The translations under genes were made by a program, and so were the position numbers. A stretch of DNA of 32,703 nucleotides, from positions 1 through 32,703 of IMG/VR virus record IMGVR_UViG_3300020397_001205; one strand, written 5' to 3'. The notes below the pieces were generated by a model. The model was given only the letters and a program-made list of their open reading frames with translations. It had not been told where the DNA came from and ran no database searches. Shown piece by piece: positions 3-26,943 of the stretch (within the stretch, counting starts at the first letter, position 1; each line of letters begins with the position of its first letter). This DNA is from a virus. Its lineage: Duplodnaviria; Caudoviricetes.

Positions 3-905
3 AAATATGGTGGAAACATTTACATTTGTAACACTGGTCATACTGCCGCGGCCACAAATGCACTTGGACTAGAAACTGACATATTAAAATGGGATCTATT
101 CTCAGAAGGTCAAGATTGGAAAACTAATTGGGCTATAAACACAAGATACAAAGTTAATGACATTGTTAAGTATGGCGGAACACTTTATATTTGTAATACT
201 GGTCATACATCAAATGCTACAGCGGCAAATGGTCTAGAAGCTGATCAAGCCAAGTGGGATTATTTTAACAGAGGTATTGAATACTTAGGTGAATGGGTAA
301 ACAGTTATAGATATAAAGTAAATGATGTTGTACTTTACGGTGCAACACTTTGGATTTGTACAACGCAACATACTTCAGTTGCAACTAATCCTGATTCACA
401 ATTAGGAACATTACAAGCTGATATAACAAAATGGGATAAATTTGTTCCAGGATTAGAATTTGAAAACAGCTGGCAAGGTGATGAAAGATATCAACCAGGT
501 GACTTTGTTACTTACGGTGGTAATCAATATGTTGCTAATCAAAACGTATATGGTGAACTTCCTCCGTCAAGTGATAAATGGGATCTTGTAACTTCTGGAT
601 TTAATTTAAGAGGTGACTGGGGTGCAGACTCTACTAATCAAGAATATAGAATCGGTGATGTTGTAAGACTAGGCGGTTATACTTATGTTGCAACAGCTAA
701 CAGTACAGGACAGCGTCCACCAAACACAACTTATTGGGGAAGATTAAACCAAGGTATTGAATGGAAAGACACATGGACAACTGCAACACTTTATGATGCA
801 GGTGATGCCGTTCGTTACGGTTTGATAAGTTACATTTGTGTGTTAGCACATACTTCGGATACTGCAAAAAGACCAGACAATGATACATCAGGTACATACT
901 GGAAA
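3..905 (+). repeat. About six tandem ~45-55 aa carbohydrate-binding (CBM5/12, ChtBD3-like) repeats
   Basis: Repeated W-x(4-7)-Y-x-x-[GN]D-x-V-x-YG-x-x-x-[YW]-[IV]-[CA]...W units, e.g. WAINTRYKVNDIVKYGGTLYICNTGH, WVNSYRYKVNDVVLYGATLWICTTQH, WQGDERYQPGDFVTYGGNQYVA, WTTATLYDAGDAVRYGLISYICVLAH. Confidence 0.75.
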
Positions 906-3900: not shown

Positions 3901-4451
3901 ACGATTTCTTAGATATTGGTACAGGTAACTTTGCAAGTACAAACTATCCAGGAACTCCTTCAATACCAGCAGACGCAAATGACGAAGTAACAGAATCCGG
4001 TGGCGGTAGAATATTCTACACATCAACAGACCAAGATGGTAACTTTAGAGTTGGTAGATTGTTTAACGTAGAACAATCAACTGGATCAGCGAGCTTGAAT
4101 ACAAGTGCATTTAGCCTAGCAGGACTGCAAGAACTTTCGCTAGGTGCAGTTGGACTTGGTCAAGGTGGAGCAACTATTAATGAATTTAGTACAGACGGTA
4201 CGTTTAGTGCAAACTCAGATAATGTAGTTCCGACACAGGCGGCTATTATAACTTACATCAATTCACAAATTGGTGGAGGTTCAAGTAGTCTAAACGTAAA
4301 CGCGGTGACGGCTGGTAAGATCAACCTAACCGGTAACACAATCAGTACAACAGATAATTCACCAATTACTGTAAACACAGGAATGAATTTTAATGGTGGT
4401 GTAGCAGGAACACCTGTTGCATTTTCGTACTTTTTGACGAGCAAAACATAA
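3..4451 (+). CDS. Large tail spike/fibre-like virion protein, 5'-truncated; CBM5/12-like repeats, pectin-lyase-like beta-helix, helical 'CxRD' domains
   Basis: The frame of track ORF 822..4451 is open back to position 3 (KYGGNIYICNTGHT...), so the TTG at 822 is not the start. Motifs VYYVGTNGADN..GATLDRPWKTIRAA, IFVKTGEYREVLPIRVP..IQGDELR, RSPYVQGVTTFG, NDFTQVLSDGIG and a C-terminal GHDFLDIGTG..GGRIFYTSTDQDGNFRVG are typical of T4-like phage tail spike proteins. Confidence 0.8.
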   Translation, partial: KYGGNIYICNTGHTAAATNALGLETDILKWDLFSEGQDWKTNWAINTRYKVNDIVKYGGTLYICNTGHTSNATAANGLEADQAKWDYFNRGIEYLGEWVNSYRYKVNDVVLYGATLWICTTQHTSVATNPDSQLGTLQADITKWDKFVPGLEFENSWQGDERYQPGDFVTYGGNQYVANQNVYGELPPSSDKWDLVTSGFNLRGDWGADSTNQEYRIGDVVRLGGYTYVATANSTGQRPPNTTYWGRLNQGIEWKDTWTTATLYDAGDAVRYGLISYICVLAHTSDTAKRPDNDTSGTYWKNLASGAEESSITTQGDLLYYGGSGPTRLPIGKEGQILSVSSGGLPEWKDFGSTPDVYYVGTNGADNAYPTNGATLDRPWKTIRAACEAIEAGARNPNAGYLLKVNRRFIAFETAKWAKRQIITQTSPFFIGFSFNEAKFERLAAFAIDALIIDLTKGGNRESRRVAQAMKDNVSGDYFDTGSEAQNVAALNFVISIATDVINSATPSADYQDLDSVPSADRYLQIKDATNYPAESGAVAEITANMVLITSAVSLGAGYTIPAEVFKHTIIFVKTGEYREVLPIRVPERCAIQGDELRSTKVLPAGQQTQSTDTTYSLAGILHMKSIIDNIVEGASVTAQTGNALSQNVSKPLSTSAVGDILEELCQELHDKIDYEINGASGDSTAPTFRGNNTRVDDLDKMSAIRLLELNKDFIARDVTKYITVNYPSYSFDSTACERDVRAYINGFIYDLIYPGNYQTLYNGTYYANSARTNGSILENMFLFRDATGLRNMTVSGLTGTLSSANAYGTKRPTAGAYASLDPGWGPDDTRTWITTRSPYVQGVTTFGTACVGMKVDGSIHNGGNDSIVANDFTQVLSDGIGAWVTNLGRAELVSVFSYYGHIGYLAENGGKIRGTNGNCSYGDKGAVSEFIDVTEVPITGGVDNRKREAQIGRALTDGSAIIHFEYTNAGNNYSNSTYTVTGNGYGAAIANGNYVNNGIFEIRLRNPDDGSTYNENDLDNDGSLNDPDTVGGRGYVFSENTAQGGTASTITLSNTETANTTKYIGMRVVITAGTGAGQYAQITSYNPGTKVANVAKESDGTAGWNTWHHSNGIAATLDATTTYSIEPRVYFTGGGGTGAQVRAKVASGRIVNFFIINPGSGYTQTPAMTIVDPNETIEAPFQIRIGNGVLAQPTWTNRGTDFETAGGTVSGDGYGDIFQSEKFLNVYGLTDIPEPGANLEIAGDSRFFKIVFVRELTGSAGNYAANLQVSPNLGIEQAPIHGANLTIRKRFSQVRLTGHDFLDIGTGNFASTNYPGTPSIPADANDEVTESGGGRIFYTSTDQDGNFRVGRLFNVEQSTGSASLNTSAFSLAGLQELSLGAVGLGQGGATINEFSTDGTFSANSDNVVPTQAAIITYINSQIGGGSSSLNVNAVTAGKINLTGNTISTTDNSPITVNTGMNFNGGVAGTPVAFSYFLTSKT

Positions 4452-4455
4452 TGGC

Positions 4456-4461
4456 TAAATA
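4456..4461 (+). promoter_or_regulatory. T4-like late promoter core (TAAATA)
   Basis: GCTAAATA in a short intergenic gap, followed by AGGAG (4469-4473) and ATG at 4480; the same core recurs before other units. Confidence 0.6.
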
Positions 4462-4479: not shown

Positions 4480-4806
4480 ATGGCATCAGGAATATTAGGA
4501 TCAACAGATCTTTCAGCAAACAGCGATACCAGTGTTTATACAGTTCCTGCTAGTACTTATAGTGTTGTAACAGTTTCTGTATGTAATAGGCATGCGACTA
4601 ATACAGCAAGTGTAAGAATAGCATGTGCTACTAGTGGAACACCAGGTTCGGCTGATTACCTTGAGTACGACGTTTCCGTTGGACCCAATGGTGTGTTAGA
4701 AAGAACAGGTATTGTCGTGGAAGCGGCAAGGCAGGTAATTGTTAGATCATCCCAAGCATCTGTAACAGCAGTTGTGATGGGCATTGAGACAGCAGTACCG
4801 GCGTAA
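4480..4806 (+). CDS. Small virion/tail-associated beta-sandwich protein
   Basis: AGGAG RBS; MASGILGSTDLSAN..VYTVPAS..VSVCNR..YLEYDV..NGVLERTGIV pattern, as in small proteins that follow tail fibres in large phages. Confidence 0.6.
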   Translation: MASGILGSTDLSANSDTSVYTVPASTYSVVTVSVCNRHATNTASVRIACATSGTPGSADYLEYDVSVGPNGVLERTGIVVEAARQVIVRSSQASVTAVVMGIETAVPA

Positions 4807-4824
4807 TATAAAGGATAGGAAAAA

Positions 4825-5280
4825 ATGGGAAGAAGAATTTCAGTAGGTTCACCAGGTTTAACTATACCTTATGGGACAACAGCACAAAGAGTTGCTGGAG
4901 CAGGTGATGGAGCACTAAGGTACAACACAGAAGTAAATGTGTTAGAACTTTATAGTACTGCACAAAGCGCCTGGTTACCAGTTGGTACTTTAAGTGCTAA
5001 AACAGTTACTACCACATACTCAGCTAATTCAGGAGAACAATTATTCTGTGATACTAATGGCGGAGGATTTACTATAACACTACCAGGTAGTCCAGCTACA
5101 GGTGATGTGATAAGATTTTACGATTTACGTAAAACTTTTGATAGTAATGCCTTAACTATTGGCAGAAACGGCAAACTTATCCAAGGCGATGCGGCTAATA
5201 TGACTGTTAACTCAGAAGGTGCGGCGTTTGACTTGGTTTATTCAGGTGATTCATACGGTTGGCGTATCTTTACTGTATAA
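4825..5280 (+). CDS. Tail fibre-associated protein with a gp34 N-terminal-like repeat domain
   Basis: GTTAQR..GALRYNT..W motif, then DTNGGGFTITLPGSPATGDVIRFYD..LTIGRNG..LVY..GW, which resembles the T4 proximal long tail fibre repeat. Confidence 0.65.
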   Translation: MGRRISVGSPGLTIPYGTTAQRVAGAGDGALRYNTEVNVLELYSTAQSAWLPVGTLSAKTVTTTYSANSGEQLFCDTNGGGFTITLPGSPATGDVIRFYDLRKTFDSNALTIGRNGKLIQGDAANMTVNSEGAAFDLVYSGDSYGWRIFTV

Positions 5281-5301: not shown

Positions 5302-6141
5302 ATGGCAACATATTCAAGTTATAAAAAAGTGACATCAGATGCTATTCCGACTGATACCATAACGGCGGCAAAGTTGGCTCCGGGTGCAGGATCGTGTAGA
5401 AGAGTCCAATGGATATATCATCCAAGAGGAATGCAATGTCATGATTGTTCATCTGCAGGTAACTGTTGTGGTCAAGCATGTGGATATTGTTGTTACTGGT
5501 GTGTTCCAGCAAACGTTTATAAAGTAACCTTTGAAATTTGGTCCGGTGGAGGTGGTTCAGCAGGTCACACTTGTTGTAACTGTTGTTCATTTTCAATTGG
5601 CGGACATGGCGGCGGATATGCCCACAAGACAATCAATACACAACCAAACTGTAAGTATACGGTATGTGCAGGCGGAAGCTGGCCATGTGATAAAGCACAC
5701 ACCTGTGCAGGTGGAATGGGATGCCGTTCTTATGTAAACGGACACAATCTATCAAACTTCTGTGTTGTAGGTGGTTGTTCGGGTTGGATGTGTAATGGAG
5801 ATGCATGGGGTCAAAGGCACTTAACAAGTCTTTGTGCATCATGTTTAATATGCGGTGTGTTTGGACACGATTTTGGATTTGGTGGTTCACCAGGATTTAA
5901 AGCTGGAACTACTATCTGTAGATGTCACGGTCAAACATCATGGACTGGGACAGGTGCAGGCATTGGTAAATATATGCAAACAAGCACTAACGAAGCTTGG
6001 TGCGCCTGTGGATGTCACGTTAATTTTCCATCAGGAGGTGGTACACCGGGTACTTCAAGTTATTGTGGAAATTGGGCAAAGTGTTGTGCTGGGGGATCAG
6101 GACAGGGCGGCTCAGGAATAGTAAAGATAACATACGTTTAG
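5302..6141 (+). CDS. Cys/Gly-rich tail-associated protein, paralog 1 (32 Cys in 279 aa)
   Basis: WCVPANV.KVTFEIWSGGGG..GGHGGGY..YTVCAGG..GGSGIVKITY glycine-rich (adhesin-like) scaffold with CC, CxC and CxxC motifs; Cys counted by hand. Confidence 0.75.
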   Translation: MATYSSYKKVTSDAIPTDTITAAKLAPGAGSCRRVQWIYHPRGMQCHDCSSAGNCCGQACGYCCYWCVPANVYKVTFEIWSGGGGSAGHTCCNCCSFSIGGHGGGYAHKTINTQPNCKYTVCAGGSWPCDKAHTCAGGMGCRSYVNGHNLSNFCVVGGCSGWMCNGDAWGQRHLTSLCASCLICGVFGHDFGFGGSPGFKAGTTICRCHGQTSWTGTGAGIGKYMQTSTNEAWCACGCHVNFPSGGGTPGTSSYCGNWAKCCAGGSGQGGSGIVKITYV

Positions 6142-7021
6142 GAGTAATAGATGGCAACATACGCAAGTTATAAAACACTAACATCAGAAAACTTTATTGA
6201 TGGAAGTATTACTGCGTCTAAGTTAGGTGCTGGTGCCGGACATCAGTATTACACCAAATGGATTTATAATGAAAGAGGACAACTATGTCAGCATTGTGCT
6301 GATGCAGGCGACTGTTGTCAACAAGCAAATGGTAAATGTTGTTACTGGGTTGTACCTTCAAATGTAAACAAAGTAACATTTGAAATTTGGTCAGGAGGTG
6401 GAGCCGGAGCAGGCGCTACATGCTGTAACAACTGTATGCACTCAGCAGGTGGATCAGGTGGAAACTACGCTGTAAAAACTATCACTACATCATCCGGTTG
6501 CGGATATACAGTATGTGCAGGTGGAACATGGCCTTGTAGTAAATCACATACTTGTTCAGCAGGTATGGGATGTCGTTCATATGTAAATGGACATAATCTA
6601 TCAAATTTTTGTGTAACTGGTGGTTGCCCTGGTTGGATGTGTAACGGCGGTGCATGGGGACCTAATCATACACAGACCTGTGCCAACTGTAATATTTGTG
6701 GTATATTTGGAGCAGATTTTGGAATAATGGGATCAACTGGAGTAACAGGTGGTCATGGAGGATGTCAATGTAGATCAGCAGACTGGATGCAAACTGGTGT
6801 TGCACCGTTTGTAGGAAAACAAGGTGTACACGCACACGCAGAAGCATGGTGCGGTTGTGCATGTTATACAAACTGGCCAGCTGGTGGTGGAATGACAGGA
6901 ACAAGTTCATATTGTAATAACTGGGCAAAATGCTGTGCTGGTGGTAATATGGGTGGTTCTGGAATAGTAAAGATAACATACGCATAGGAAAATAGAATGG
7001 CAACATACGCAAGTTATAAAA
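6115..7021 (+). repeat. Direct repeat of the gene junction, copies at 6115-6175 and 6961-7021 (846-bp period)
   Basis: Identical 22-mer ggaatagtaaagataacatacg and identical 25-mer atggcaacatacgcaagttataaaa at the same spacing in both copies. Confidence 0.85.
6151..6987 (+). CDS. Cys/Gly-rich tail-associated protein, paralog 2 (28 Cys in 278 aa)
   Basis: Colinear with paralogs 1 and 3; the AGGAG RBS overlaps the upstream TAG. Confidence 0.75.
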   Translation: MATYASYKTLTSENFIDGSITASKLGAGAGHQYYTKWIYNERGQLCQHCADAGDCCQQANGKCCYWVVPSNVNKVTFEIWSGGGAGAGATCCNNCMHSAGGSGGNYAVKTITTSSGCGYTVCAGGTWPCSKSHTCSAGMGCRSYVNGHNLSNFCVTGGCPGWMCNGGAWGPNHTQTCANCNICGIFGADFGIMGSTGVTGGHGGCQCRSADWMQTGVAPFVGKQGVHAHAEAWCGCACYTNWPAGGGMTGTSSYCNNWAKCCAGGNMGGSGIVKITYA

Positions 7022-7833
7022 AAGTAGCAACAGACTCAATAGTTGACGGTTCGCTTACTTCCGATGATCTGGCACCTGGTGCTGGTCATGCCATGGGTGT
7101 ACAATGGATCTATAACGAAAGAGGAATGCAATGTCATAACTGTGCTAGACAGAGTGGTTGTTGTCAACAGGCAAATGGTAAATGTTGTTACTGGTGTGTT
7201 CCAACAGGTGTATCAACAGTACAATTTGAAATTTGGTCTGGTGGCGGCGGTGGACCAGGAATGACTTGCTGTAATTGTTGTTCTTTTACCGTAGGCGGTT
7301 CTGGTGGTAACTATGCTTCTAAGACGATTAGTACTGCACCAGGCTGTAAATATTCAGTATGTGCTGGCGGGGCATGGCCATGTGGAAAAGCTCATGGTTG
7401 TTCAGCTAGTATGGGTTGTAAATCATATGTAAATGGATATAATTTAAGCAACTTCTGTACTACAGGTGGCTGTGGTGGTTGGATGTGTAATGGAGATGCT
7501 TGGGGACCAAGACACTCACATTCATGTTCAAACTGTAATATCTGTGGAATCTTCGGTGCTGACTTTGGAATGATGGGATCATCAGGATGGGAACCAGGAC
7601 ACGGTGGATGCCATTGTTGGTTTACGTATTCAGGATCAGGATCTGCACCACAATTTGGTAGAATGCAAGTTGGTGTAACCAACGAAGCATGGTGTTCATG
7701 TGGATGTCATATTGACTGGCCAGCAGGCGGTGGACAAGCGGGTGTTAGTTCATACTGCGGAAACTGGGCAAAATGTTGTGCAGGAGGCTCTGGACAGGGC
7801 GGTTCCGGAGTTGTTAGAATAACTTTTATGTAA
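6997..7833 (+). CDS. Cys/Gly-rich tail-associated protein, paralog 3 (30 Cys in 278 aa)
   Basis: Colinear with paralogs 1 and 2 (MATYxSYK start, SYVNGxNLSNFC, SSYCxNWAKCCAGG). Confidence 0.75.
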   Translation: MATYASYKKVATDSIVDGSLTSDDLAPGAGHAMGVQWIYNERGMQCHNCARQSGCCQQANGKCCYWCVPTGVSTVQFEIWSGGGGGPGMTCCNCCSFTVGGSGGNYASKTISTAPGCKYSVCAGGAWPCGKAHGCSASMGCKSYVNGYNLSNFCTTGGCGGWMCNGDAWGPRHSHSCSNCNICGIFGADFGMMGSSGWEPGHGGCHCWFTYSGSGSAPQFGRMQVGVTNEAWCSCGCHIDWPAGGGQAGVSSYCGNWAKCCAGGSGQGGSGVVRITFM

Positions 7834-7865: not shown

Positions 7866-8657
7866 ATGAGCAGAAGAATAGAAAAACAATTTACATATCC
7901 TGTTTGGGATAAGTGGAGAGAAAATAGCTTTACCGAAGGGCGTACTGCTACACATACATATAAAGGTCCAGAATTTTTGACTTTTGAAATATGTCATGAT
8001 AAGAATTCAGATGATTATGGAAAAGAATGTGGATGGTGCATGTGGGAAAAAAGAGATCTTGAAAGACCCGCAGGTAAAGATATTACAAGAATTACAGTAG
8101 ATTGTAAAGAAAATCCATTGCTTTGCGAAATTGCAAACGACGAAGGTCGTGAAGACATGGTTGCAATGCGTAGAGGTAGAGAGTGGAAAGTTCTTTGGGA
8201 CGCTCCAGACGGTTTTCAAGACGTAGAATACACAGATGAATTAGAACCTCGTGACGTATATGATGAACAAAATATTACATACGATTTTGATAAAAAAGAG
8301 TTTGTAATTGGTATACACGATTGGGAAGCTACAGGAGTCAAAAAAGACTTAACTTGGGCACAAGTAAGAGACGTAAGAGATGCGGCATTGCATGAAACTG
8401 ATGCTAAAGTGGGCATGGATGATGCACCAGCTGAAATTATTGATGGCTGGAAAGGTTATAGACAAAACCTAAGAGATTTACCAAGTGCTATGCAGGCAAA
8501 AGGTTACGAGCCGTGGCAAGTTGTACAAATGTTTCCAGTCATGCCTAAGGATATGAGAGATCCTGAAGAATCTTCAGATCCAAATGATCCATACAGAGAC
8601 GGTGCATTTGCTGTAGACGTTGCCGTTGCCGCACAAAAAGTCGCAGGCAAAAAGTAA
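7866..8657 (+). CDS. Protein with a C-terminal phage tail assembly chaperone domain
   Basis: TWAQVRDVRDAALHETD..DAP..WKGYRQNLRDLP..FP matches the Phage_tail_APC/Tfa-like pattern; the gene lies directly after the Cys-rich genes. Confidence 0.75.
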   Translation: MSRRIEKQFTYPVWDKWRENSFTEGRTATHTYKGPEFLTFEICHDKNSDDYGKECGWCMWEKRDLERPAGKDITRITVDCKENPLLCEIANDEGREDMVAMRRGREWKVLWDAPDGFQDVEYTDELEPRDVYDEQNITYDFDKKEFVIGIHDWEATGVKKDLTWAQVRDVRDAALHETDAKVGMDDAPAEIIDGWKGYRQNLRDLPSAMQAKGYEPWQVVQMFPVMPKDMRDPEESSDPNDPYRDGAFAVDVAVAAQKVAGKK

Positions 8658-8712: not shown

Positions 8713-8718
8713 TAAATA
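8713..8718 (+). promoter_or_regulatory. T4-like late promoter core (TAAATA) heading the enzyme operon
   Basis: CATAAATA, then AGGAG (8729-8733) and GTG at 8741. Confidence 0.65.
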
Positions 8719-8740
8719 TTTGCATATTAGGAGTGTTATT

Positions 8741-9805
8741 GTGTCAAGAAAAAAAGTGTATTTTATGAACGGTGGTGCAGGTAGAACAGTAGCCAGTATT
8801 CCTGCATTTGAAAAATTATACGAAAAAGATAAAGATTTTATAATTGTTTGTGAGGGAGGTATGGAGTTTTACAAAGGACATCCTTTCTTACATGAAATGG
8901 CATTTGATCACTGGCATAAAAATTTATTCAAAGATTATATTAAAGATAGAGATTGTATTACTCCAGAACCATATAGAGTTTGGGAATACTACAATCAAAA
9001 ATGTAGTTTAGCACAGGCTTTTGATATTGCTATAAACAACGAAGGATTGCGAGAATTAGCAGATCCAAAAATATATATGAACAAACACGAACTTGTTCAA
9101 GGTTATAAAGTTGTTGAAGAGATAAAAGCAGTTACAGGTAAAGACAAAGTTTTAGTTTTTCAACCATTTGGTAGGACAGCAGAAAACATGGGAGATTTTA
9201 TAATCGACGGATCTTCTAGAAGTTTTCATTTAAATGACGTAATTAGAATTTGTAAAGATTTAAGAGAAGATTACGCTGTGATAATAATGGCAGAATGGCC
9301 AGTAACAATAGAAGAAAATGCAAAAGTTCCTATTGCTGTTCCACAAATTCCTGATGTGAGAGTATGGTCAAGTATAATACAAATAGCAGATCACTTTTTA
9401 GGTTGTGATAGTTTAGGGCAACATATGGCAAAAGCATTAGGTACAACATGTACAAGTGTGATAGGTAGTACATATCCTATTAATATATCTTATCCTAACT
9501 CTCCAGACTTTGATATAATTGACTTAGGAGAAGGTAAAAGAAAATTTAGTCCTATTAGACTAACGATGGAAGATGAAATTGAAAGATACAACGATGAAGT
9601 AATGGAGTTGAATGATGAAAGTTTTAAGGAAATTGTATCAAGTGTGCGTAAACGCCTTGGTAAACCTCGGGCTTATACGGGAACGTACAAACCTCAAGAA
9701 CAACAAGGAGAAGTCTGCCCGACGCATGGGGTTGTCCACAAAAATGATGCAGGAATAACACATGCCAAGGAACCTGCTAAAATACTTGGAAGGACAGGTC
9801 GGTGA
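8741..9805 (+). CDS. GT-B glycosyltransferase, GT9 (heptosyltransferase)-like
   Basis: N-terminal GGAGRTVASIPA and C-terminal ADHFLGCDSLGQHMAKALG resemble the GT9 'GxGD' and 'DS-x-x-x-H-x-A-x-A-L' motifs. Start moved to GTG 8741 because of the AGGAG RBS. Confidence 0.65.
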   Translation: MSRKKVYFMNGGAGRTVASIPAFEKLYEKDKDFIIVCEGGMEFYKGHPFLHEMAFDHWHKNLFKDYIKDRDCITPEPYRVWEYYNQKCSLAQAFDIAINNEGLRELADPKIYMNKHELVQGYKVVEEIKAVTGKDKVLVFQPFGRTAENMGDFIIDGSSRSFHLNDVIRICKDLREDYAVIIMAEWPVTIEENAKVPIAVPQIPDVRVWSSIIQIADHFLGCDSLGQHMAKALGTTCTSVIGSTYPINISYPNSPDFDIIDLGEGKRKFSPIRLTMEDEIERYNDEVMELNDESFKEIVSSVRKRLGKPRAYTGTYKPQEQQGEVCPTHGVVHKNDAGITHAKEPAKILGRTGR

Positions 9806-10398
9806 GGTTAAACAGTGAACAGGAAAGTGCTATTTTAGAAGATTGGCAAGAAAATACTAGTTCGCAACCTATAAGGCAATTAGAAACTTGGGTAATAGAT
9901 GATTTACACTATCCAGAATACAGAAGATTTGACAAATTATTTACAGAAAATAATATAGGCCATAAAGACTGGGGCAACGGATGGTTGTATTATAAAAAGG
10001 ATATGCAATATCCTGAAGATTTAGATCCTGAAAAACACTTTCATGAATTTATTAAAAAGTCTTGCAAAGGTTTACCAATAAAAATTACAAATTTTAAAAA
10101 GTCGTGGGGCGTAAAATACATAGCTGGAGCATATAGTGGAATGCACAGCCACGTTCCAGGTAGACAATTGACAGCAGTTTTGTTTTTAACAACATCAATC
10201 CATTCTCAAGAATATCCATTGGCAGGAAATTTGGTTACATTACAACCTACTAATCATGAAATAAATTATGTTGCCACGCCTGCGATTCAAGGAAATATTG
10301 TAATAATGGATGGCAGGGTTTATCATGGAACGTATCCAACACTAAATGAACGTAAAGTTTTTGTTTGTGATTTTGATTACGAATTATATAATGGATGA
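9802..10398 (+). CDS. Fe(II)/2OG-type (double-stranded beta-helix) oxygenase, HxH type
   Basis: GAYSGMHSH..LTAVLFL..DGRVYHGTYP..RKVFVCDF; GTGA overlap with the upstream stop. Confidence 0.65.
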   Translation: MRLNSEQESAILEDWQENTSSQPIRQLETWVIDDLHYPEYRRFDKLFTENNIGHKDWGNGWLYYKKDMQYPEDLDPEKHFHEFIKKSCKGLPIKITNFKKSWGVKYIAGAYSGMHSHVPGRQLTAVLFLTTSIHSQEYPLAGNLVTLQPTNHEINYVATPAIQGNIVIMDGRVYHGTYPTLNERKVFVCDFDYELYNG

Positions 10399-10993
10399 AA
10401 AATTTTTAAACAATGCTTATCAGGGAGATAAAGATTTTTGGTTTCTATCCAAACAAGGAAAGATAGCTGATTATTGGATATCTAAATGTAAGTATCCTGA
10501 TTGGAAAAGATTCTTACCATTATTTGAAGAAAATATGGGTATGCAAACACATACTGATCACGGAGGAGCAATATTATCCTATAATAAGGATGGAAAATAT
10601 GTTTATCAAGTAGATCCAAAGCACGAATATGAAAACTTTATAAAAAAAGAATTAGAACCTTTTCAATTTGATAGTATAGAATTTGAAAAATGTTGGTGGA
10701 TAAAATATCCTGTAGGAGCATATAGTGGATTACATACTCATTTACCTTTACGAAAGCTAACATCAGTTTTATTTTTAGACACATTGGAGTTAAATGATGA
10801 CAAACCTTTAGCAGGTAAGTTACAGAGTGTAACACAAAATCCTGTTACTGGAGAACTTATCAGTGATGTTGCTAAATGTATTGCAGGAGATGTATCTATT
10901 ATGGACGGAAAAGTTTATCATGGAGTATATCCTACTCTACAAGAAAGGAGAGCATTTGTTTGCGATTTCATATATGAAGTTACATATGATTAA
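10391..10993 (+). CDS. Fe(II)/2OG-type oxygenase, HxH type; paralog of the upstream gene
   Basis: GAYSGLHTH..LTSVLFL..DGKVYHGVYP..RRAFVCDF. Start taken as ATG 10391 to minimise overlap. Confidence 0.65.
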   Translation: MDEKFLNNAYQGDKDFWFLSKQGKIADYWISKCKYPDWKRFLPLFEENMGMQTHTDHGGAILSYNKDGKYVYQVDPKHEYENFIKKELEPFQFDSIEFEKCWWIKYPVGAYSGLHTHLPLRKLTSVLFLDTLELNDDKPLAGKLQSVTQNPVTGELISDVAKCIAGDVSIMDGKVYHGVYPTLQERRAFVCDFIYEVTYD

Positions 10994-11026
10994 AACAGTT
11001 ACATACAATAAGAGAGGAATAAAAGT

Positions 11027-12850
11027 ATGACACAATGGATAGGAGCAATAACAAGAGGCCACAACGGTGGTGCGGTTTTACTTAAAGATGGTGAAATAGT
11101 TTTTGCTATCGAAGAGGAACGTCTTACAAGAAAGAAATATGATGGTGGTCCTTTAGCCGCTATGACAAAATTTCTTGATTATACAGACAAATTGGATTAC
11201 CTTGTAGTGGCTCATACACAACCTTTAGCTGAATCTAGTAGAATAGACTTCAGTGGTGGCGATATGTACACAGGTTTGGCAAGAAAATTAGGTTTAATAG
11301 ACAGATCAAATAGTGCATATGGACAAAACTTTGATCATAGACAGGTTATTGATATGAGTGATGTACACCACAAGTTACATGCCGCCTGTGCTTTTTATAG
11401 ATCAGGTTTTGAATCAGCGGTTGCATTAGTAGTTGACGGTGCAGGAACGTTCATACCTATGAATATTAATACTGGTTTATATAACGATGAAACTATGACT
11501 TGGGAATGTGAAAGCATTTTTTCATGTAGTTACCCAGATGATTTCAAAACTTTATATAAACACCAAGGTGGAAATGGACCTTATCCTGGTACAAAAATAG
11601 ATCAAATATCGTCCGAAAGAGAACATGAAGAAGGATATCATGAATTAGTGTTGGATGATACAGCTGGTATTGTAAAAGCCTACGAAGCAGTAACACAATA
11701 TTGTGGTTTTCAACCAATAGAAGCAGGAAAAACTATGGGGTTAAGCCCTTATGGACAACCTTGCGATAAATTTCCTAAAATTTATACAGATGGTGGTGGT
11801 GGAAAATGGAGAACAACTGATAAAAACTTCATTATACCGACTTATCCTAACGCCGCTTTAGTAAATGAGTCAAGATTTTCATATTTGGAGACTACAGAAG
11901 ACCAAGCTAACAGTAGAATAGACTTAACTACGTTAGAAAATAGAAGAAATCTTGCATACGCTGTACAAAAAGAATCTCAAGAAGAAGTTTTAAAGTTAAT
12001 TTTCAAAGCAGTTGAAATGACTGGAAATAAAAATGTTGTATTAAGCGGAGGATATGCTTTAAATTGTGTAGCTAATTATTTTTTCCTTGATGAATTGAAC
12101 AAAGAAGGTATCAAACTTTATGTTGAACCGGTTAGTAATGATGCAGGCACGGCAATAGGTGCGGCTATGTTGCAATATCATCAAACTACAAAAGATCGAA
12201 AAGTAAGACCTTACGCAGAAACAATATATGAAGGTTTTGAATACGAGTATACTTTAAATGATATAACAAAAATTGCAGATAGTTATGGTGCAAGTGTAAC
12301 TGATGCAGATAATAAGCATATTGTTGACTTATTAACAAGTAAAAACATTGTTACAATATTTCAAGGTAAGTCTGAAAACGGCCCTAGAGCATTAGGAAAT
12401 AGAAGTATATTATTTGATCCTACTTATGAAGATGGCAAGGATTTTGTGAACAAAGTAAAACGTAGAGAATACTTTAGACCATTTGCAGGTTCAATTTTGT
12501 TAGAACATGCACACGAATGGTTTGATATGAAAGGAATGGAACAGTCTCCGCATATGATGTATGCAATGGATTGTCAGCCAGGTGTAGCAGAAAAGATTCC
12601 GTCGATAATACATGTTGATGGAACATGTAGAATACAAACTGTTACCAAGGAACAAAACGAAAATTACTATAATCTAATAGAAGAGTTCTACAAAAAGACT
12701 AATATTCCAATTGTGTTCAATACAAGTTTCAATCTTGCTGGCGAACCATTGGTAGAAACATTAGAAGATGCTGTTAGAACATTGTATAACAGTGAAATGG
12801 AGTATTGTTATTTGCCAGAATTTGGGAAATTAATAGAAATGAAAAACTAA
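11027..12850 (+). CDS. O-carbamoyltransferase, NodU/CmcH/TobZ family
   Basis: EEERLTRKK, HHKLHA, VDGAG, GKTMGLSPYG, SGGYALNCVAN, NDAGTAIGAA, GPRALGNRS, KRREYFRPFA, HVDGTCRIQTV, NTSFN. Confidence 0.93.
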   Translation: MTQWIGAITRGHNGGAVLLKDGEIVFAIEEERLTRKKYDGGPLAAMTKFLDYTDKLDYLVVAHTQPLAESSRIDFSGGDMYTGLARKLGLIDRSNSAYGQNFDHRQVIDMSDVHHKLHAACAFYRSGFESAVALVVDGAGTFIPMNINTGLYNDETMTWECESIFSCSYPDDFKTLYKHQGGNGPYPGTKIDQISSEREHEEGYHELVLDDTAGIVKAYEAVTQYCGFQPIEAGKTMGLSPYGQPCDKFPKIYTDGGGGKWRTTDKNFIIPTYPNAALVNESRFSYLETTEDQANSRIDLTTLENRRNLAYAVQKESQEEVLKLIFKAVEMTGNKNVVLSGGYALNCVANYFFLDELNKEGIKLYVEPVSNDAGTAIGAAMLQYHQTTKDRKVRPYAETIYEGFEYEYTLNDITKIADSYGASVTDADNKHIVDLLTSKNIVTIFQGKSENGPRALGNRSILFDPTYEDGKDFVNKVKRREYFRPFAGSILLEHAHEWFDMKGMEQSPHMMYAMDCQPGVAEKIPSIIHVDGTCRIQTVTKEQNENYYNLIEEFYKKTNIPIVFNTSFNLAGEPLVETLEDAVRTLYNSEMEYCYLPEFGKLIEMKN

Positions 12851-13455
12851 TGTTACAAAACCTATATGCTATACCAGTTTATAAAATTAAATTACCAGAG
12901 CATGAACAGATCCAGCAAGACTTTGAAGATGTTCTAAAAGATGACAGTAATTTTGATCATGTTTCTACATGGTATAGTAATGTAGATACTACATTTGGTA
13001 ATCCTGAAGCCAATAATTTACCTTTCAATACATTCATCAAAAGTGCAATTATAGGATTGAATGAATATCTCAAACATTTCAAGATAGATGCACCAATTCG
13101 ATATGGAATAGAGTGTTGGCTCAACAGATATAAAAGAGATTACTATCAGGAAGTACATAATCACGCCGGCAGAAGTGTTTTTAGTTGTGCATACATGTTA
13201 AAAACACCTAAGGATAGCGGAAATTTTGTATTTTACAAAAATACGTATGATAATTTGCACTCAAGCGGACTGCCAATATTATCGAGTCAACCATTCATGT
13301 TTAATAATAGAATAACACCACCTATGGAAGAAGGTGATATAATTTATTTTCCTAGCACCTTAGAACATTACGTGACTGGTAACAAAACTGATAATATAAG
13401 AGCAACTATAAGTGCCAATTTTATGTTGGAGTTGAAAGAAAATGAAGAAAAATAG
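12850..13455 (+). CDS. Putative 2OG-Fe(II) oxygenase, TIGR02466-like
   Basis: WLNRY..QEVHNH..FSCAY..EGDIIYFPSTLEHYV..RATISANF. Start at ATG 12850 (TAATG coupling). Confidence 0.8.
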   Translation: MLQNLYAIPVYKIKLPEHEQIQQDFEDVLKDDSNFDHVSTWYSNVDTTFGNPEANNLPFNTFIKSAIIGLNEYLKHFKIDAPIRYGIECWLNRYKRDYYQEVHNHAGRSVFSCAYMLKTPKDSGNFVFYKNTYDNLHSSGLPILSSQPFMFNNRITPPMEEGDIIYFPSTLEHYVTGNKTDNIRATISANFMLELKENEEK

Positions 13456-14149
13456 TATAGATGAATATAAAGTCTTTGAAATAAATCCAAACTATGATGT
13501 AAAAGTTGAAATATATCAACCAGGCAACGTCAAAGTATTAATAGTTGACGACTTTTACAAGGATCCTTGGGCTGTTAGACAACTTGCTCTTGATATTCCG
13601 GCAAGTATTAACAAGAGAATACGGGGAATGAACCCTGCTCATAGGATTAATGCATTTTATGATTTATCACCAATGGCTTGGGCATTTGATCAACTGATTA
13701 GAACACATTTTCATGCAGAAGCTAGTCAACTCCCTCCAGATTACCTCCAGCAAAGTTTTACAAACGCAACATTTATGGTAAATGTCATGCAAAGTGAGAA
13801 CTTGCCACCTTTATGTCCTCACATGGACAACACCAGTGGCGTTAATTTTGCCAGCACAATCTATTTGAACACTGCTGATGAATGCCAAGGTGGTACAAGT
13901 TTTTACACATATGGTGGAAAGACATATTATGATGATCAACATCAAATGCAAACGCTTGACAAAGCAGGAAAAATGCCTATCAAACAATACATTACTGATA
14001 GTATAGGAGATTTTGAAATGATTGGCATGGCTCCGATGATATTTAATAGAATGGTGCTGTATAATCAAGCAGTATTACATACTGCATACGTAAAACCAGG
14101 AATGTTTGTTGGTGATAACTACAGATTAAACCAACAATTTTTTATTTAG
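13442..14149 (+). CDS. 2OG-Fe(II) oxygenase-like protein (DUF6445-like)
   Basis: IVDDFYKDP..PHMD..STIYLN..GGTSFY..FNRMVLY..LH..RLNQQFF, giving an HxD..H..R arrangement. Confidence 0.75.
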   Translation: MKKNSIDEYKVFEINPNYDVKVEIYQPGNVKVLIVDDFYKDPWAVRQLALDIPASINKRIRGMNPAHRINAFYDLSPMAWAFDQLIRTHFHAEASQLPPDYLQQSFTNATFMVNVMQSENLPPLCPHMDNTSGVNFASTIYLNTADECQGGTSFYTYGGKTYYDDQHQMQTLDKAGKMPIKQYITDSIGDFEMIGMAPMIFNRMVLYNQAVLHTAYVKPGMFVGDNYRLNQQFFI

Positions 14150-14158
14150 GAGACAAAT

Positions 14159-14734
14159 ATGGAAGGTGACTACAACGGAATAGAAGAATATAAACATTGT
14201 TTTCCATTAGACTACTGTAAAAAACTAATAGAAACTTTTGAACAACGTGCTAGTATGCAATTAACCGAACATCAAACTGGTTTTAAAAACCAAGATGAAA
14301 GAATATTTATGGATATGGCAAATCATAACAATATGTTTCATGTTGATGCAGACTTATGTAAGTTTTTTTATCAAACTGTAATGACAACATACGAAGAAAA
14401 GTATAGAAAGAAATATGACAGTCTTGGTGCTGTAGTTCAACATTCTCCTAAAGGTATGAGCATTCAAAAAACAAGACCACACCAAGGATATCATGCATGG
14501 CATTGTGAAAATGCAGATTTATGCACTTCTTCTAGATTGATGGCTTATACGCTTTATTTAAATACAGTGGAAGAAGGAGGAGAGACTGAATTTTTGTACC
14601 AAGGTGTAAAAATAAAACCAGAACCAGGCAAGTTAGCAATCTTTCCAGCGTACTATACGCACCCTCATAGGGGAAATCCAATATACAAAGGCATAAAATA
14701 TATTGTATCTGGCTGGTATACATTCGATGAATAG
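14159..14734 (+). CDS. 2OG-Fe(II) oxygenase, prolyl-4-hydroxylase-like
   Basis: YHAWHCE..RLMAYTLYLNTVEEGGETEF..GKLAIFP..THPHRGNP..KYIVSGW, typical of T4-like aquatic phages; AGGAG RBS. Confidence 0.88.
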   Translation: MEGDYNGIEEYKHCFPLDYCKKLIETFEQRASMQLTEHQTGFKNQDERIFMDMANHNNMFHVDADLCKFFYQTVMTTYEEKYRKKYDSLGAVVQHSPKGMSIQKTRPHQGYHAWHCENADLCTSSRLMAYTLYLNTVEEGGETEFLYQGVKIKPEPGKLAIFPAYYTHPHRGNPIYKGIKYIVSGWYTFDE

Positions 14735-14742
14735 GATCTGAT

Positions 14743-15108
14743 ATGAAAAAAATATTATTTGTAGCAATATTAGGAATTTTTATATTATTCGCTACTGGTT
14801 TTACTAGTTTTGCAGGCGAATGGCAAGATAAACCTGTAATGTGTGGTGATGAACAAGAAGTTTTTGGACTTATGGGCAGTAAAGACGAACAATTACTTCT
14901 AAGAGGAGATTTGATAGCGAAAGTTAGAGATCCAGATGAAGCAGATGGCTTATCGGTTACTCCAGCTATATTGCCTTTAGCTGTATATGGTAATTTTAAA
15001 ACAGGAACATTTACTATTGTTGAATATCACGGTGCACCTTATAATCAATTTTGCATAATTGCGTTTGGTCAAAAGTTACAACTACCTGATTATGGAGCAA
15101 CAAAGTGA
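14743..15108 (+). CDS. Small exported protein with signal peptide and two Cys
   Basis: MKK + hydrophobic stretch + SFA cleavage-like site; KPVMCG...FTIVE...FCIIAFG. Confidence 0.65.
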   Translation: MKKILFVAILGIFILFATGFTSFAGEWQDKPVMCGDEQEVFGLMGSKDEQLLLRGDLIAKVRDPDEADGLSVTPAILPLAVYGNFKTGTFTIVEYHGAPYNQFCIIAFGQKLQLPDYGATK

Positions 15109-16544
15109 AAATTTGTGTTGTAGGAGGAGGCACAGCAGGTTTTGTCTCAGCACTTATACTGAAATCTACCTTTCCCACTTATACTGTAGATGTTATTAAA
15201 AGTTCTAATATTCCAACAATAGGAGTTGGAGAAGGATCTACCGAGCATTGGGCAAGATTTATGGATTTTGTAGGTATTCCAGCCGGAGAAATGATAAAAG
15301 AATGTGATGCTACATTTAAATCCGGCATCATGTTTGAAAATTGGGGTGCAAAAGATTATCTACAGAATGTCCACGCACATTATACAGTAGATAAAAACGG
15401 ATTTCCTATAGCATATTCAAAATTGATGTCTGAGGATTGTAATCCAATCGAACTTACTGGATCATATCTTTGGGAAAACAAAACTCCATTCATGAAGTTT
15501 ATAGAAGAAAGACCAAATGAAACAGGAGTATCTCAGTACCATTTTAATACAAGTAAACTAAATGATTATCTTGTTAAAAAAGCACAACTGCTTGGTTGTC
15601 AAGTCATTGACGATGAAATTGAACCAGTGTGGTCGACAGAAATAAAATATTTAAAAGGCAAGAAACAGGATTATCACTATGATTTTTATATCGATTGCAC
15701 AGGTTTCAAAAGACTTTTAATCAGTAAGCTGGGAGCAAAATGGAAAAGTTATAGACAATGGTTAAAAATGAAAGAAGCAATAGTATTTCCTACTCCTGAA
15801 GAAGATGAAATACCAATGTGGACACTTGCAAGGGCAATGAACTGTGGTTGGATGTTTAGAATTCCTGTGTATGATAGGAAGGGTAATGGATATATCTATG
15901 ATAGTGATTACATTACTGCCGATGAAGCTCAAAAAGAAGTTGAAAATTATTTAGGTCATGAAGTAACAGTTGCAAAAAATATTAAATTCGATCCAGGAGC
16001 AATAGATAAGCCTTGGATTGCAAATTGTTGTGCAATAGGCCTTAGTGCTAACTTTGTTGAACCGTTAGAAGCTAGTAGTATCGGTACAAGCATTAATCAA
16101 TCATTCTTATTAGCACAAAGAATTTTCAAATATAACGAAATAACAATACAAAAATACAATGCTGAAGTTGATGCTATAATGGAAAATATAAGAGACTTTA
16201 TTATATTACATTACATAAGTCCAAGACGTGACACAAAATTTTGGGAAGACGTTGCTGAAATAGAATTACCTGAAAGTTTAAAAAATAATTTAAGTATGTG
16301 GAAACATCGATTACCAGTTGCAGATGATTTTCCAAATAAAAGTCTGTTCAATGAATACAATCATGCTTTGGTGATGCACGGAATGAATCTTTTTAATAGA
16401 AATAGTTTGAAAAAACAATATGAGGAACTTCATCCAGATGCAAAACAACATGTTGAACACTTAATAAACGAAAAAAATAATTTTGATAATATAAAAGCAA
16501 TACCGCATAAACTTATGTTAGATTTATTGCGGAGACTTTCATGA
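15105..16544 (+). CDS. Flavin-dependent (tryptophan halogenase family) halogenase
   Basis: GGGTAG, IGVGEGS, DATFKSGI (catalytic Lys position), YHF, IDCTGF, GWMFRIP, FVEPLEASSI. Confidence 0.9.
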   Translation: MKICVVGGGTAGFVSALILKSTFPTYTVDVIKSSNIPTIGVGEGSTEHWARFMDFVGIPAGEMIKECDATFKSGIMFENWGAKDYLQNVHAHYTVDKNGFPIAYSKLMSEDCNPIELTGSYLWENKTPFMKFIEERPNETGVSQYHFNTSKLNDYLVKKAQLLGCQVIDDEIEPVWSTEIKYLKGKKQDYHYDFYIDCTGFKRLLISKLGAKWKSYRQWLKMKEAIVFPTPEEDEIPMWTLARAMNCGWMFRIPVYDRKGNGYIYDSDYITADEAQKEVENYLGHEVTVAKNIKFDPGAIDKPWIANCCAIGLSANFVEPLEASSIGTSINQSFLLAQRIFKYNEITIQKYNAEVDAIMENIRDFIILHYISPRRDTKFWEDVAEIELPESLKNNLSMWKHRLPVADDFPNKSLFNEYNHALVMHGMNLFNRNSLKKQYEELHPDAKQHVEHLINEKNNFDNIKAIPHKLMLDLLRRLS

Positions 16545-17392
16545 GAATATTTGCGTTTGGTTGCAGTCTATCTCAATATTTTTTTCCTACTTGGGCTGAC
16601 ATACTAATATATCAATATAAAAACAAAGGCTATCACGGAGAAAACTGGGCTAAAAGTGGAGCAGGTAATCAGTACATCAACACAAGACTTTGGGAAGCTA
16701 ACACAATCTACAAATTTAACAAAGAAGATATTATTTTGTTACAATGGACAAGTATGTTCCGTGAAGATAGATATCATATGAACAAAGGTTGGTGGACCCC
16801 TGGCAATTTCAATTTAAATAACGAAAATCAATCTTTTGTCCTTAACAATTATTTTTATGACAATCAAAACGTTTGGGCAGACCCAATACATGCTGTAATG
16901 AGAGATTGTGCATTAATATCAAGCACTCATAGAGCTTTAGCAAGTATAGGATGCAAAGTAATTACAACAGGATTTAGAGATTGGGAAGAAGGTTGGACAG
17001 AATTATCTACAGAATTTACTACACAAAAGTATCTTACTATTGAAGATGTAAGAGCTGTTTTAGAAAAATATAAAGATGAAATAAAATTATCGACACCACC
17101 TATACTGACTGCTTTAGGATTTGAAACAAGCGATAAATTTTTCAAAAGTAGACCTACCAGTGTACCTAGCAAACAAGAAGATCATAAACATATGATTTCT
17201 CCAGAAGTACATCCTCTAACTCACGAAGCCGCAGACTTTGTTAACAATCATGTTGAAAAATTAGACCAACAGACAACAGAATTTGTGGAACAATGGAGAG
17301 AAAAATTAAATCAAGATACAATTTTATTATATGAACTTGACTGGTTTAATAAAGATAAACATGGTTGGTCAGATGATGGATGGAGACCATAA
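16541..17392 (+). CDS. SGNH/GDSL hydrolase-like hypothetical protein
   Basis: FAFGCS near the N-terminus, NWAKSGAGN, QWT..RED and a late HP..H motif. Confidence 0.55.
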   Translation: MRIFAFGCSLSQYFFPTWADILIYQYKNKGYHGENWAKSGAGNQYINTRLWEANTIYKFNKEDIILLQWTSMFREDRYHMNKGWWTPGNFNLNNENQSFVLNNYFYDNQNVWADPIHAVMRDCALISSTHRALASIGCKVITTGFRDWEEGWTELSTEFTTQKYLTIEDVRAVLEKYKDEIKLSTPPILTALGFETSDKFFKSRPTSVPSKQEDHKHMISPEVHPLTHEAADFVNNHVEKLDQQTTEFVEQWREKLNQDTILLYELDWFNKDKHGWSDDGWRP

Positions 17393-17976
17393 TGACAATA
17401 CCTGTTATAGGATTAGATAGAGACGGAACAATAAATCAAGATATAGGATTAACAGAGGAGGGTGTACCTCCTTATTGTATCAAACCAGAACAATTTAAGC
17501 CTATACCCGGTAGCTTAGAAGCTGTAAAAATGATAAGAGACAAAGGATATGATGTAGTTATTTTAACTAATCAATCAGGCATACAAAGAGGTGTGATGGA
17601 CGCAGTTGATGTTGACATAGTTAATAATTACATGCTCAAACTTTTAGGCGATATAGGTTGTAAAAGCATTAACGGACTGTATTATTCAACCACACCATTC
17701 AAAGACGATCCGTACAGAAAACCTAATATAGGAATGTTCAAAAGAGCGTCTGCTGAAATTGGAGTCGATTGGACAAACGGAGTGTACGTTGGTGATAAAA
17801 TTACAGATCTAAAAGCGGCCATGAAGGCAAAAGCAAAACCAGTGCTTGTACGCACAGGATATGGTGAAGAAACTACAAAGAAACTTAATACTTTTGCAAA
17901 CAAAGACCTCAAAAAACGCACTGAAATATTTGACGATCTAAGTAAGTTTGCACACAGCTTGGTTGATTTGTCCTAA
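17392..17976 (+). CDS. gmhB: D-glycero-D-manno-heptose-1,7-bisphosphate phosphatase (HAD-IIIA)
   Basis: LDRDGTIN, TNQSGI, RKPNIGM, VGDKITD, VLVRTGYG. Start at ATG 17392 (GGAG RBS, TAATG coupling). Confidence 0.85.
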   Translation: MTIPVIGLDRDGTINQDIGLTEEGVPPYCIKPEQFKPIPGSLEAVKMIRDKGYDVVILTNQSGIQRGVMDAVDVDIVNNYMLKLLGDIGCKSINGLYYSTTPFKDDPYRKPNIGMFKRASAEIGVDWTNGVYVGDKITDLKAAMKAKAKPVLVRTGYGEETTKKLNTFANKDLKKRTEIFDDLSKFAHSLVDLS

Positions 17977-26567: not shown

Positions 26568-26943
26568 TTTCCTGATTACCTTGGCTGTCGCCAGGTGCAA
26601 TACGATAATTATCTTCAACAGAATCAGCAGTACTAACTTCGGTTACGCTACTTCCTGCTTCCATACATACTAATTGATGTGGTTGTAAAGGAGGATTATG
26701 CCAAGTCATACCTTGTGTCAATTCTTGTTCGTAAATCTTAGATGTTTTTGTATCAATCCATCTAAGTAAAAATTTTCCATTATTTACAAACCAAGTTTCA
26801 TCTTTTTCTTTATGAAAATGTAAACTAAATTTTGATCCTACTTTCTCAAATACCATGATTTTGCCACAGTATTTGTCGTTGGTAGCCCAAATCAACTCAT
26901 AACCCCAACCTTTTTCTACTTTACCTTCAAGTCTTTCGGTCAT
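26542..26943 (-). CDS. Cupin-fold protein, sugar isomerase-like
   Basis: KGWGYE..YCGK..SLHFH..KDETW..PH..EVST..DNYR..GD. Start at ATG 26943 with an AAGGA RBS. Confidence 0.8.
   Translation of the reverse strand: MTERLEGKVEKGWGYELIWATNDKYCGKIMVFEKVGSKFSLHFHKEKDETWFVNNGKFLLRWIDTKTSKIYEQELTQGMTWHNPPLQPHQLVCMEAGSSVTEVSTADSVEDNYRIAPGDSQGNQEIKPEPRPT

Follow-up and report, generated by a model that had tools for sequence, protein, structure and literature searches.

The stretch of DNA analysed here (the window) is a 32.7-kb fragment of the virus record IMGVR_UViG_3300020397_001205, and our subject is an operon in its tail block that encodes a GT9-fold glycosyltransferase (GT), a carbamoyltransferase and further tailoring enzymes, together with the substrate on which these may act. 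The 11-gene operon named in the original prediction, which was made from the DNA letters alone, is real: all its open reading frames (ORFs) are on the + strand, from 8741 to 17976, and the translational coupling noted there is borne out by overlaps at 7 of the 10 junctions, the remaining gaps being 33, 9 and 8 nt (ox1 and ox2 overlap by 8 nt, given an ox2 start at 10391). A TAAATA core stands at the operon head (8713..8718, +) as described, and the operon directly follows three Cys/Gly-rich genes (CysA to CysC, 5302..7833, +) and a tail fibre assembly chaperone (7866..8657, +; PF16778, E 4.6e-8). Among the 28 window proteins scanned against family libraries there was no nonribosomal peptide synthetase, polyketide synthase or precursor family, in agreement with the reported lack of a scaffold builder.

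The closest long relative, the 262-kb genome G001 (73% estimated completeness), shares the gene order and has a GT that is 83% identical; in the 195 of its 285 ORFs that were scanned it encodes Gp23, a T4-type portal, terminase, gp32, RecA, haem oxygenase and bilin reductase. Judged from this relative, the window phage is a marine jumbo T4-like phage. Gene content was compared across 80 GT-anchored viral loci and across loci anchored on the Cys-rich genes, of which 76 were found, 18 were excluded for short downstream sequence and 58 with at least 3 kb downstream were counted. Forward and reciprocal GT searches each returned 55 phage records of the same composition, namely cyanomyoviruses, N4-like Vibrio phages and Aeromonas phage HJ05. 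Four contigs with the module (L100, L101, L112, L113) had been binned into a bacterial genome assembly and are apparently phage contigs.

The GT9-fold transferase and its Cys-rich neighbours

The GT gene (8741..9805, +) most likely starts at the GTG at 8741, with AGGAG upstream, and encodes 354 amino acids (aa). Its GT9-like assignment was upheld, as a predicted model (predicted local distance difference test, pLDDT, 81) was closest to the GT9 structure 3tov, TibC, WaaF and WaaC, with Foldseek matches to 3tov (E 6e-10), 1psw (1.3e-7) and 2gt1 (1.8e-7), and the Atlas clusters containing the GT carry heptosyltransferase names. By sequence the GT has no Pfam match and nothing over cut-off for PF01075 or TIGR02193/02195, with TIGR02201 reaching only E 0.009; searches of the PDB by sequence with the GT and Cys families returned noise only, the folds being found through structure comparison.

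The position of the GT9 catalytic Asp is occupied by Arg (Arg15 in the window) in every one of the 87 intact sequences (88 distinct sequences in all). In a profile comparison with WaaC that included three canonical GT9 rows, this Arg aligned with WaaC D13 at the start of helix 1 (G-R vs the canonical G-D), and the donor-side Asp was kept as an invariant D223 in 'GCDS', aligned with WaaC D261 ('VSVD'). D13 has been proposed as the base of WaaC, with a 4688-fold drop in D13A (PMC5713226), and Asp110 as the base of TibC (PMC4358343). The GT family has only one invariant Cys. In general chemical terms an enzyme without a base fits a thiol acceptor better than a hydroxyl, and so the missing catalytic Asp points to a thiol acceptor.

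CysA (5302..6141, +; 32 Cys in 279 aa), CysB (6151..6987, +; 28 Cys in 278 aa) and CysC (6997..7833, +; 30 Cys in 278 aa) are Cys/Gly-rich fibre-tip paralogues with 10–11.5% Cys and 9–11 Trp each. A model of CysB (pLDDT 74), with a TNF-like and a glycine-rich fold, matched the Pam3 fibre 7ypx (E 9.6e-8, TM-score 0.53) and the Bxb1 tail tip, and its sequence weakly matched PF21722; the fold of CysA, a likely acceptor, is assigned via CysB. The orthologues of these three are the three most Cys-rich of 241 G001 proteins (median 1.2%). A reading of them as precursors akin to ribosomally synthesized and post-translationally modified peptides was dropped because they are 278-aa fibre-fold proteins with a chaperone. 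Another G001 protein (L086:14493-17024, -; 843 aa, no Pfam match) reaches 10 Cys per 100 residues locally and is distant from the GT.

The co-occurrence check proposed with the original prediction was run, and the chaperone, GT and carbamoyltransferase accompany the Cys-rich genes in 58 of 58 Cys-anchored loci. With a Cys-rich neighbour defined as at least 8 Cys per 100 aa within 7 kb and the GT clustered at 70% identity, such a neighbour was present in 16 of 16 evaluable clusters (21 clusters less 5 that could not be evaluated; one of those counted is a fragment of another) against a background of 1 in 31 GT-free HldD loci. The pattern extends to the Vibrio phages SBP1 and D497. In each of them the gene immediately after the GT encodes a tail protein with 19 Cys between residues 101 and 350, compared with 0, 0, 0, 2 and 1 Cys in five homologues from Vibrio phages outside the GT list. 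In one control alignment, 15 of the 23 SBP1 cysteines stand opposite D, E, S, T or Q, and one position of the D497 repeats, presumably surface-exposed, is occupied by Cys in some copies and by N, Q, K, D, E or T in others. The gene before the GT of Aeromonas HJ05 encodes 4.1% Cys, compared with 0–0.9% in 13 other neighbours; a control search found no homologue of this HJ05 fibre. The Cys-enriched tail proteins beside the GT of cultured Vibrio and Aeromonas phages are found at L005:8742-11519, L290:5001-10271 and L287:6306-7985.

The carbamoyltransferase gene (11027..12850, +) encodes a NodU/TobZ-family O-carbamoyltransferase, and this earlier call stands with PF02543 and PF16861 over cut-off and with Kae1-like and YrdC-like domains. 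Its motifs GH, HHxxHA, DG and DAG align with GdmN and 7xb6, and TobZ was also matched. It follows the GT in 79 of 80 GT loci, the contig ending in the remaining one.

Donor genes, promoters and accessory enzymes

The gene list of the original prediction held a GmhB-like heptose bisphosphate phosphatase (17380..17976, +; start possibly 17392), which was recovered with PRK08942 (E 4.5e-37, below cut-off), and left out the other donor genes at 26.5–29 kb on the - strand. These encode HldE, a bifunctional heptose kinase/adenylyltransferase (27766..29022, -; PRK11316, E 1e-99), HldD, an ADP-heptose 6-epimerase (26927..27769, -; TIGR02197, E 2e-68), and a metal-binding cupin (26542..26943, -; HxH..K.E...H). 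HldE, GmhB and HldD are the best NCBIfam matches of these proteins, all below equivalog cut-offs. GmhA, which has the SIS fold, was found in none of 5 virus fragments, 4 complete cyanophages and 80 viral HldD loci, and neither a DNA-level search for it nor a viral scan using bacterial HldE found anything.

The cupin probably takes the GmhA step, the isomerisation of sedoheptulose-7-phosphate, as its co-occurrence across loci suggests. The 80 viral HldD loci hold HldE in 78 cases, the cupin in 75 and a halogenase in 8, and there is no overlap between the 13 phage records that have GmhA and the 35 that have the cupin. Lyxose- or mannose-phosphate-isomerase families account for 13–32% of members among its Atlas neighbours (96% in one cluster), it is fused to a heptose kinase in several metagenome loci, and an hldE-hldD-cupin-gmhB operon is present in a bacterial genome without a GmhA match. 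The cupin is rare in cells, occurring in 2 of 31 and 2 of 401 genomes, the centre genome being one each time. Counting against an isomerase role, 2 of 80 cupin loci also hold a GmhA-like gene, and some phages that lack the GT have the cupin too, in their sugar clusters. The loci with a fused or operon-embedded cupin are L355:4991-6301, L357:4990-6315, L364:4984-6315 and L102:3888-6952, and the PHROG label 'cysteine dioxygenase' for this protein was not used. The label 'phosphoheptose isomerase' on cyanophage genes of 106–114 aa was rejected, as 4 of 4 match an EcbF-type HAD phosphatase, below cut-off; the relabelled genes are L001:23708-24043, L002:20821-21147, L003:15930-16250 and L004:16024-16368, and the HAD protein of cyanophages likely performs the GmhB step. 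Two further flavin-dependent halogenases (29019..32008, -; PF04820) complete the heptose operon; they come from different clades, and no gene for a flavin reductase can be seen in the window.

Of 42 distinct regions upstream of the GT, which are related to one another and not independent, 40 contain TAAATA, vs 4.8% of 116-nt windows taken at random. The motif likewise stands before the chaperone (29 of 32 relatives; 7840 in the window) and the gene following GmhB (19 of 19), and it precedes the carbamoyltransferase in 0 of 41 upstream regions; across the whole window it is not enriched (28 found vs 51.7 expected). The T4 late consensus is given as TATAAAT (PMC3037559), and a test for T4-type late promoters (TATAAATA-like core) found the TAAATA core kept in position, from which we infer the timing. 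Within 7.8–18.1 kb, sigma-70 patterns (59 vs 48.9 +/- 8.4) and terminators (5 vs 4.9) were found at about the level of chance. Because TAAATA stands before the GT, the chaperone and the gene after GmhB and is absent before the carbamoyltransferase, the operon is, by its sequence signals, a separate late-type unit within the tail block, presumably expressed late. Upstream in the fibre block lie a large tail fibre gene (822..4451, +; PHROG 9851, E 8e-117), which is syntenic in relatives and may start before the ORF call, and two small tail-associated genes (4480..5280, +; 108 and 151 aa) with PHROG tail matches, conserved order and a TAAATA at 4456. The fibre genes reported to follow the operon were not recovered; a gp9/10-like baseplate connector and virion structural genes lie there instead, with no clear fibres.

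The remaining operon genes encode the five oxygenases of the original prediction, all retained, a small protein, a halogenase and an SGNH-like protein. Ox1 (9802..10398, +; HxH...H; PHROG 81, E 2.3e-8) is an Fe/2-oxoglutarate-type oxygenase absent from many relatives, and its paralogue ox2 (10391..10993, +; PHROG 81, E 3.4e-6) is variable, both PHROG-81 matches being weak. Ox3 (12850..13455, +) has PF13759, ox4 (13442..14149, +; HxD...H...R) is a DUF6445 protein, for which the PHROG label 'minor coat protein' was not used, and ox5 (14159..14734, +) is prolyl-hydroxylase-like with PF13640. A 121-aa protein with a hydrophobic N-terminus (14743..15108, +) is a sporadic insert that gave no family match in family-library scans, and its exported-type gene sits before the halogenase in 18 of 80 GT loci. 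The flavin-dependent halogenase (15105..16544, +) was supported by PF04820 (E 1.7e-91) and PDB halogenases; it contains GGGTAG and Lys72, and its WMFRIP has Phe at the second Trp of WxWxIP, giving WxFxIP. The 283-aa putative SGNH-like protein (16541..17392, +) shows the motifs FGCS, G-x-G-N and E-x-H-P, which resemble SGNH blocks, and gave no Pfam or PDB match.

These accessory genes vary between relatives. The counts among the 58 Cys-anchored loci were 51 for ox3 and for DUF6445, 50 for ox1-type genes, 49 for the halogenase and 47 for ox5; contig ends account for some of the absences. S-SSM7, Sf-FS3, S-CAM3 and P-SSM2 keep the fibre, the Cys genes, GT, carbamoyltransferase, a split HldE, HAD, cupin and HldD, and DUF6445 also lies near the core in S-SSM7 and Sf-FS3. 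S-CAM3 keeps the core at a locus free of oxygenases and halogenases, no halogenase lies within 12–15 kb of it in Sf-FS3 or P-SSM2, and the operon halogenases of the window and S-SSM7 belong to different clades (support 100/100, though long branches were flagged). Four loci, L194, L198, L203 and L204, have another cassette after the carbamoyltransferase (L194:16789-20834, L203:15041-20262); it includes a 353-aa ORF that, from its motifs, we take to be amidinotransferase-like and an ORF that is presumably radical-SAM-like. G001 has five more PF13759 genes scattered through its genome and two more carbamoyltransferase genes elsewhere. The conserved core is thus, from gene content, the three Cys/Gly-rich fibre-tip proteins, chaperone, GT and carbamoyltransferase, with the ADP-heptose genes. 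The other members of the operon (oxygenases, halogenase, SGNH-like and exported proteins) share its promoter and are most likely passengers or else extras particular to a lineage. Since the accessory genes vary or are swapped, the tailoring line reduces to the GT, the carbamoyltransferase and the heptose donor. Elsewhere in G001, a cluster at 87–103 kb (L090, L091) encodes GT8, GT25, sulfotransferase and methyltransferases, and one at 220–246 kb (L097, L098) encodes a radical SAM protein, DegT aminotransferase, ATP-grasp protein, second carbamoyltransferase and ABC transporter.

The probable substrate and its alternatives

We lean towards the reading that the phage would heptosylate its own Cys-rich fibre tips, possibly on cysteine, and then carbamoylate the sugar; the virion fibre is, in our estimate, a slightly better than even candidate for the target. 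The cupin would convert sedoheptulose-7-phosphate, and HldE, GmhB and HldD would then yield ADP-heptose late in infection. The GT would place heptose on the Cys-rich fibre-tip proteins, possibly via cysteine sulfur: in the absence of a general base, the donor would be attacked by a cysteine thiolate, a group that requires little activation and might be held by Arg15. The carbamoyltransferase would act on a heptose hydroxyl, by analogy with NodU and TobZ on sugars, and the sugar coat would tune adsorption or shield the tip. The sulfur linkage as such is quite possible, at somewhat short of even, and more tentative again is the full proposal of a GT9 branch of Arg-for-Asp protein S-heptosyltransferases that, fed by the cupin, would coat fibres with carbamoylated heptose on dozens of cysteines and so drive Cys enrichment in the paired fibre. 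The suggestion of a virion substrate in the original prediction thereby has good support where the GT is concerned and is plausible in the case of the carbamoyltransferase, from synteny, from the Cys-fibre coupling in unrelated phages and from the lack of DNA-priming enzymes in the relatives searched, and it does not extend to the whole operon. Its proposed order of hydroxylation followed by heptosylation was not supported, given a core without oxygenase in S-CAM3, oxygenases scattered in a relative and an Asp loss that fits a thiol; nor was a role for the halogenase, whose place is taken by members of different clades from one phage to another and is vacant in S-CAM3.

Several observations weigh against heptosylation of the fibre. 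Most of the compared loci are close kin, amounting to about four independent lineages, and the Vibrio comparison involves only two GT-positive lineages, with controls only 24–36% identical over part of the protein. The Vibrio and Aeromonas GT loci have no nearby carbamoyltransferase or heptose genes, and the heptose genes and cupin also occur in the GT-less cyanophages S-SM2, S-T4 and Sf-CH8. The operon has a promoter to itself, apart from the fibre genes, and 6 of the 42 GT-upstream regions also match a loose sigma-70 pattern. In the alignment of the Cys trio, 11 of 31 invariant columns are Cys, which disulfides or metal sites would fit too, and a PEPY glutamate present in 84 of 88 GT sequences is a possible alternative base.

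The separate promoter and the sigma-70-like sites would also suit a GT and carbamoyltransferase that remodel a host surface glycan, either lipopolysaccharide (LPS) or another receptor, so as to block rival phages or stop progeny from adhering to debris, with the proximity to fibre genes reflecting a receptor match. Two enzymes of LPS synthesis, WaaC and WaaF, are among the nearest fold matches, the genes have been published as 'LPS genes' (PMC3037559), and G001 carries other GT2, GT8 and GT25 clusters. We regard this as unlikely. Synechococcus WH8102, the host of Sf-FS3, is described as having LPS with neither 3-deoxy-D-manno-oct-2-ulosonic acid (Kdo) nor heptose (PMC4515613), so the WaaC acceptor is missing in that host; the hydroxyl-activating Asp is lost from the GT; and the Cys gain of neighbouring tail proteins of unrelated fold, seen only with the GT, would be left unexplained.

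That all 11 genes form one virion-tailoring line, with the oxygenases creating acceptors and the halogenase decorating fibre aromatics, would accord with the common promoter and gene overlaps, with the high frequency of ox3, DUF6445, ox5 and halogenase in Cys-anchored loci (47–51 of 58), with DUF6445 near the core of two cyanophages and with Trp-rich fibre tips. It is, however, a rather unlikely arrangement given the lack of oxygenase and halogenase in S-CAM3 and of a nearby halogenase in Sf-FS3 and P-SSM2, the different halogenase clades of S-SSM7 and the window, the other cassette in four loci and the scattered PF13759 genes of G001.

The loss of the catalytic base in all members and the many invariant cysteines could alternatively mean that the Asp-to-Arg protein is a nucleotide-sugar-binding assembly factor or adds a transient Cys cap, the mature cysteines ending in disulfides or metal sites. 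This appears improbable, as the donor-side Asp is kept, the GT is accompanied by a complete pathway for the donor and by a carbamoyltransferase of the sugar type, and the Vibrio cysteines replace polar residues in repeats.

Both chemistries occur in phage DNA, as heptosyl-5-hydroxymethylcytosine (5hmC; bioRxiv 10.1101/2023.12.21.572611) and through a 5hmC carbamoyltransferase (PMC8670742), in systems described there as needing a C5-methyltransferase with a TET-type oxygenase or a thymidylate-synthase-like hydroxymethylase. DNA hypermodification (heptosyl- or carbamoyl-5hmC) is nevertheless very improbable here, since in searches that ran on relatives, the window being a 32.7-kb fragment, PF00303 matched none of 5 GT-bearing records (S-CAM3 and P-SSM2 were tested for this family only), PF00145 was absent from G001 (73% complete), S-SSM7 and Sf-FS3, no PF12851 was over cut-off in 5 records (with a weak 15-bit match in Sf-FS3, and control genomes that gave no positive), and T4 beta-glucosyltransferase was not among the GT fold matches listed.

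If fibre heptosylation is correct, abundant ocean phages would use for the construction of their virions genes that have long been classed as 'LPS' or auxiliary metabolic genes acting on the host, and the sugar coat, lying on the tip that binds the receptor, would be relevant to host range. The Arg-for-Asp GT9 would be a useful enzyme, and with the cupin there would be two types of sedoheptulose-7-phosphate isomerase.

Comparison with known systems

Phage-encoded glycosylation of virions has a precedent in the glycosylated mycobacteriophages, and Cys-linked sugars are made by glycocin S-glycosyltransferases such as SunS, which belong to other GT families and use hexoses. Our literature search, with most subscription papers and all supplements outside it, found no paper giving virion glycosylation for this module or the cupin at the GmhA step, and heptose on cysteine was not found in print, so that it would be a linkage new to the literature searched.

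The module resembles the cyanomyovirus 'LPS genes' of T4 gene clusters (T4-GC) 302–308 (P-SSM2 307–313, S-SSM7 120–134 and S-CAM3; PMC3037559), where three Cys-rich genes are followed by a homologous GT (45–59% identity), a carbamoyltransferase, the heptose enzymes and the cupin. GCs 304, 305, 307 and 308 are described in that source as LPS genes of unknown function and possibly stuffer DNA. The GT of these viruses is annotated as hypothetical, and the window differs in belonging to a jumbo T4-like lineage with a fused HldE and a true GmhB. The tip, TNF-like as well as rich in glycine and followed by a chaperone gene, recalls Pam3, in which the gp24 fold recognises the host and is folded by the neighbouring chaperone gp25 (7YPX; PMC9608196), whereas the window has three paralogues of 10–11% Cys and the available part of PMC9608196 makes no mention of cysteine. 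The carbamoyltransferase shares two-domain architecture and motifs with NodU, TobZ, GdmN and the phage 5hmC enzyme (PMC8670742), but lies in a distinct phage clade tied to the GT and without a thymidylate-synthase-type partner.

The GT itself shares with WaaC and WaaF (CAZy GT9, PF01075) the fold, the glycine loop before helix 1 and the donor-side Asp, and differs in its Arg for D13, its lack of a Pfam match and at least one host without the Kdo acceptor. With TibC/AAH (PMC4358343) it has in common the GT9-like fold, the proposed ADP-heptose donor and a gene encoded with its likely adhesin substrate. Membership of this bacterial autotransporter heptosyltransferase (BAHT) family was rejected, as the predicted model opens at Rossmann strand 1 without the N-terminal beta-barrel or the four-Cys iron finger, and Arg replaces Asp110; the TibC/AAH substrate is a Ser-acceptor autotransporter, whereas the one proposed for the phage GT is a Cys-rich fibre. 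What is known, then, is that these genes have been published as cyanophage 'LPS genes', and what is new is the reading of virion-fibre heptosylation, akin to adhesin heptosylation by TibC but outside the TibC family.

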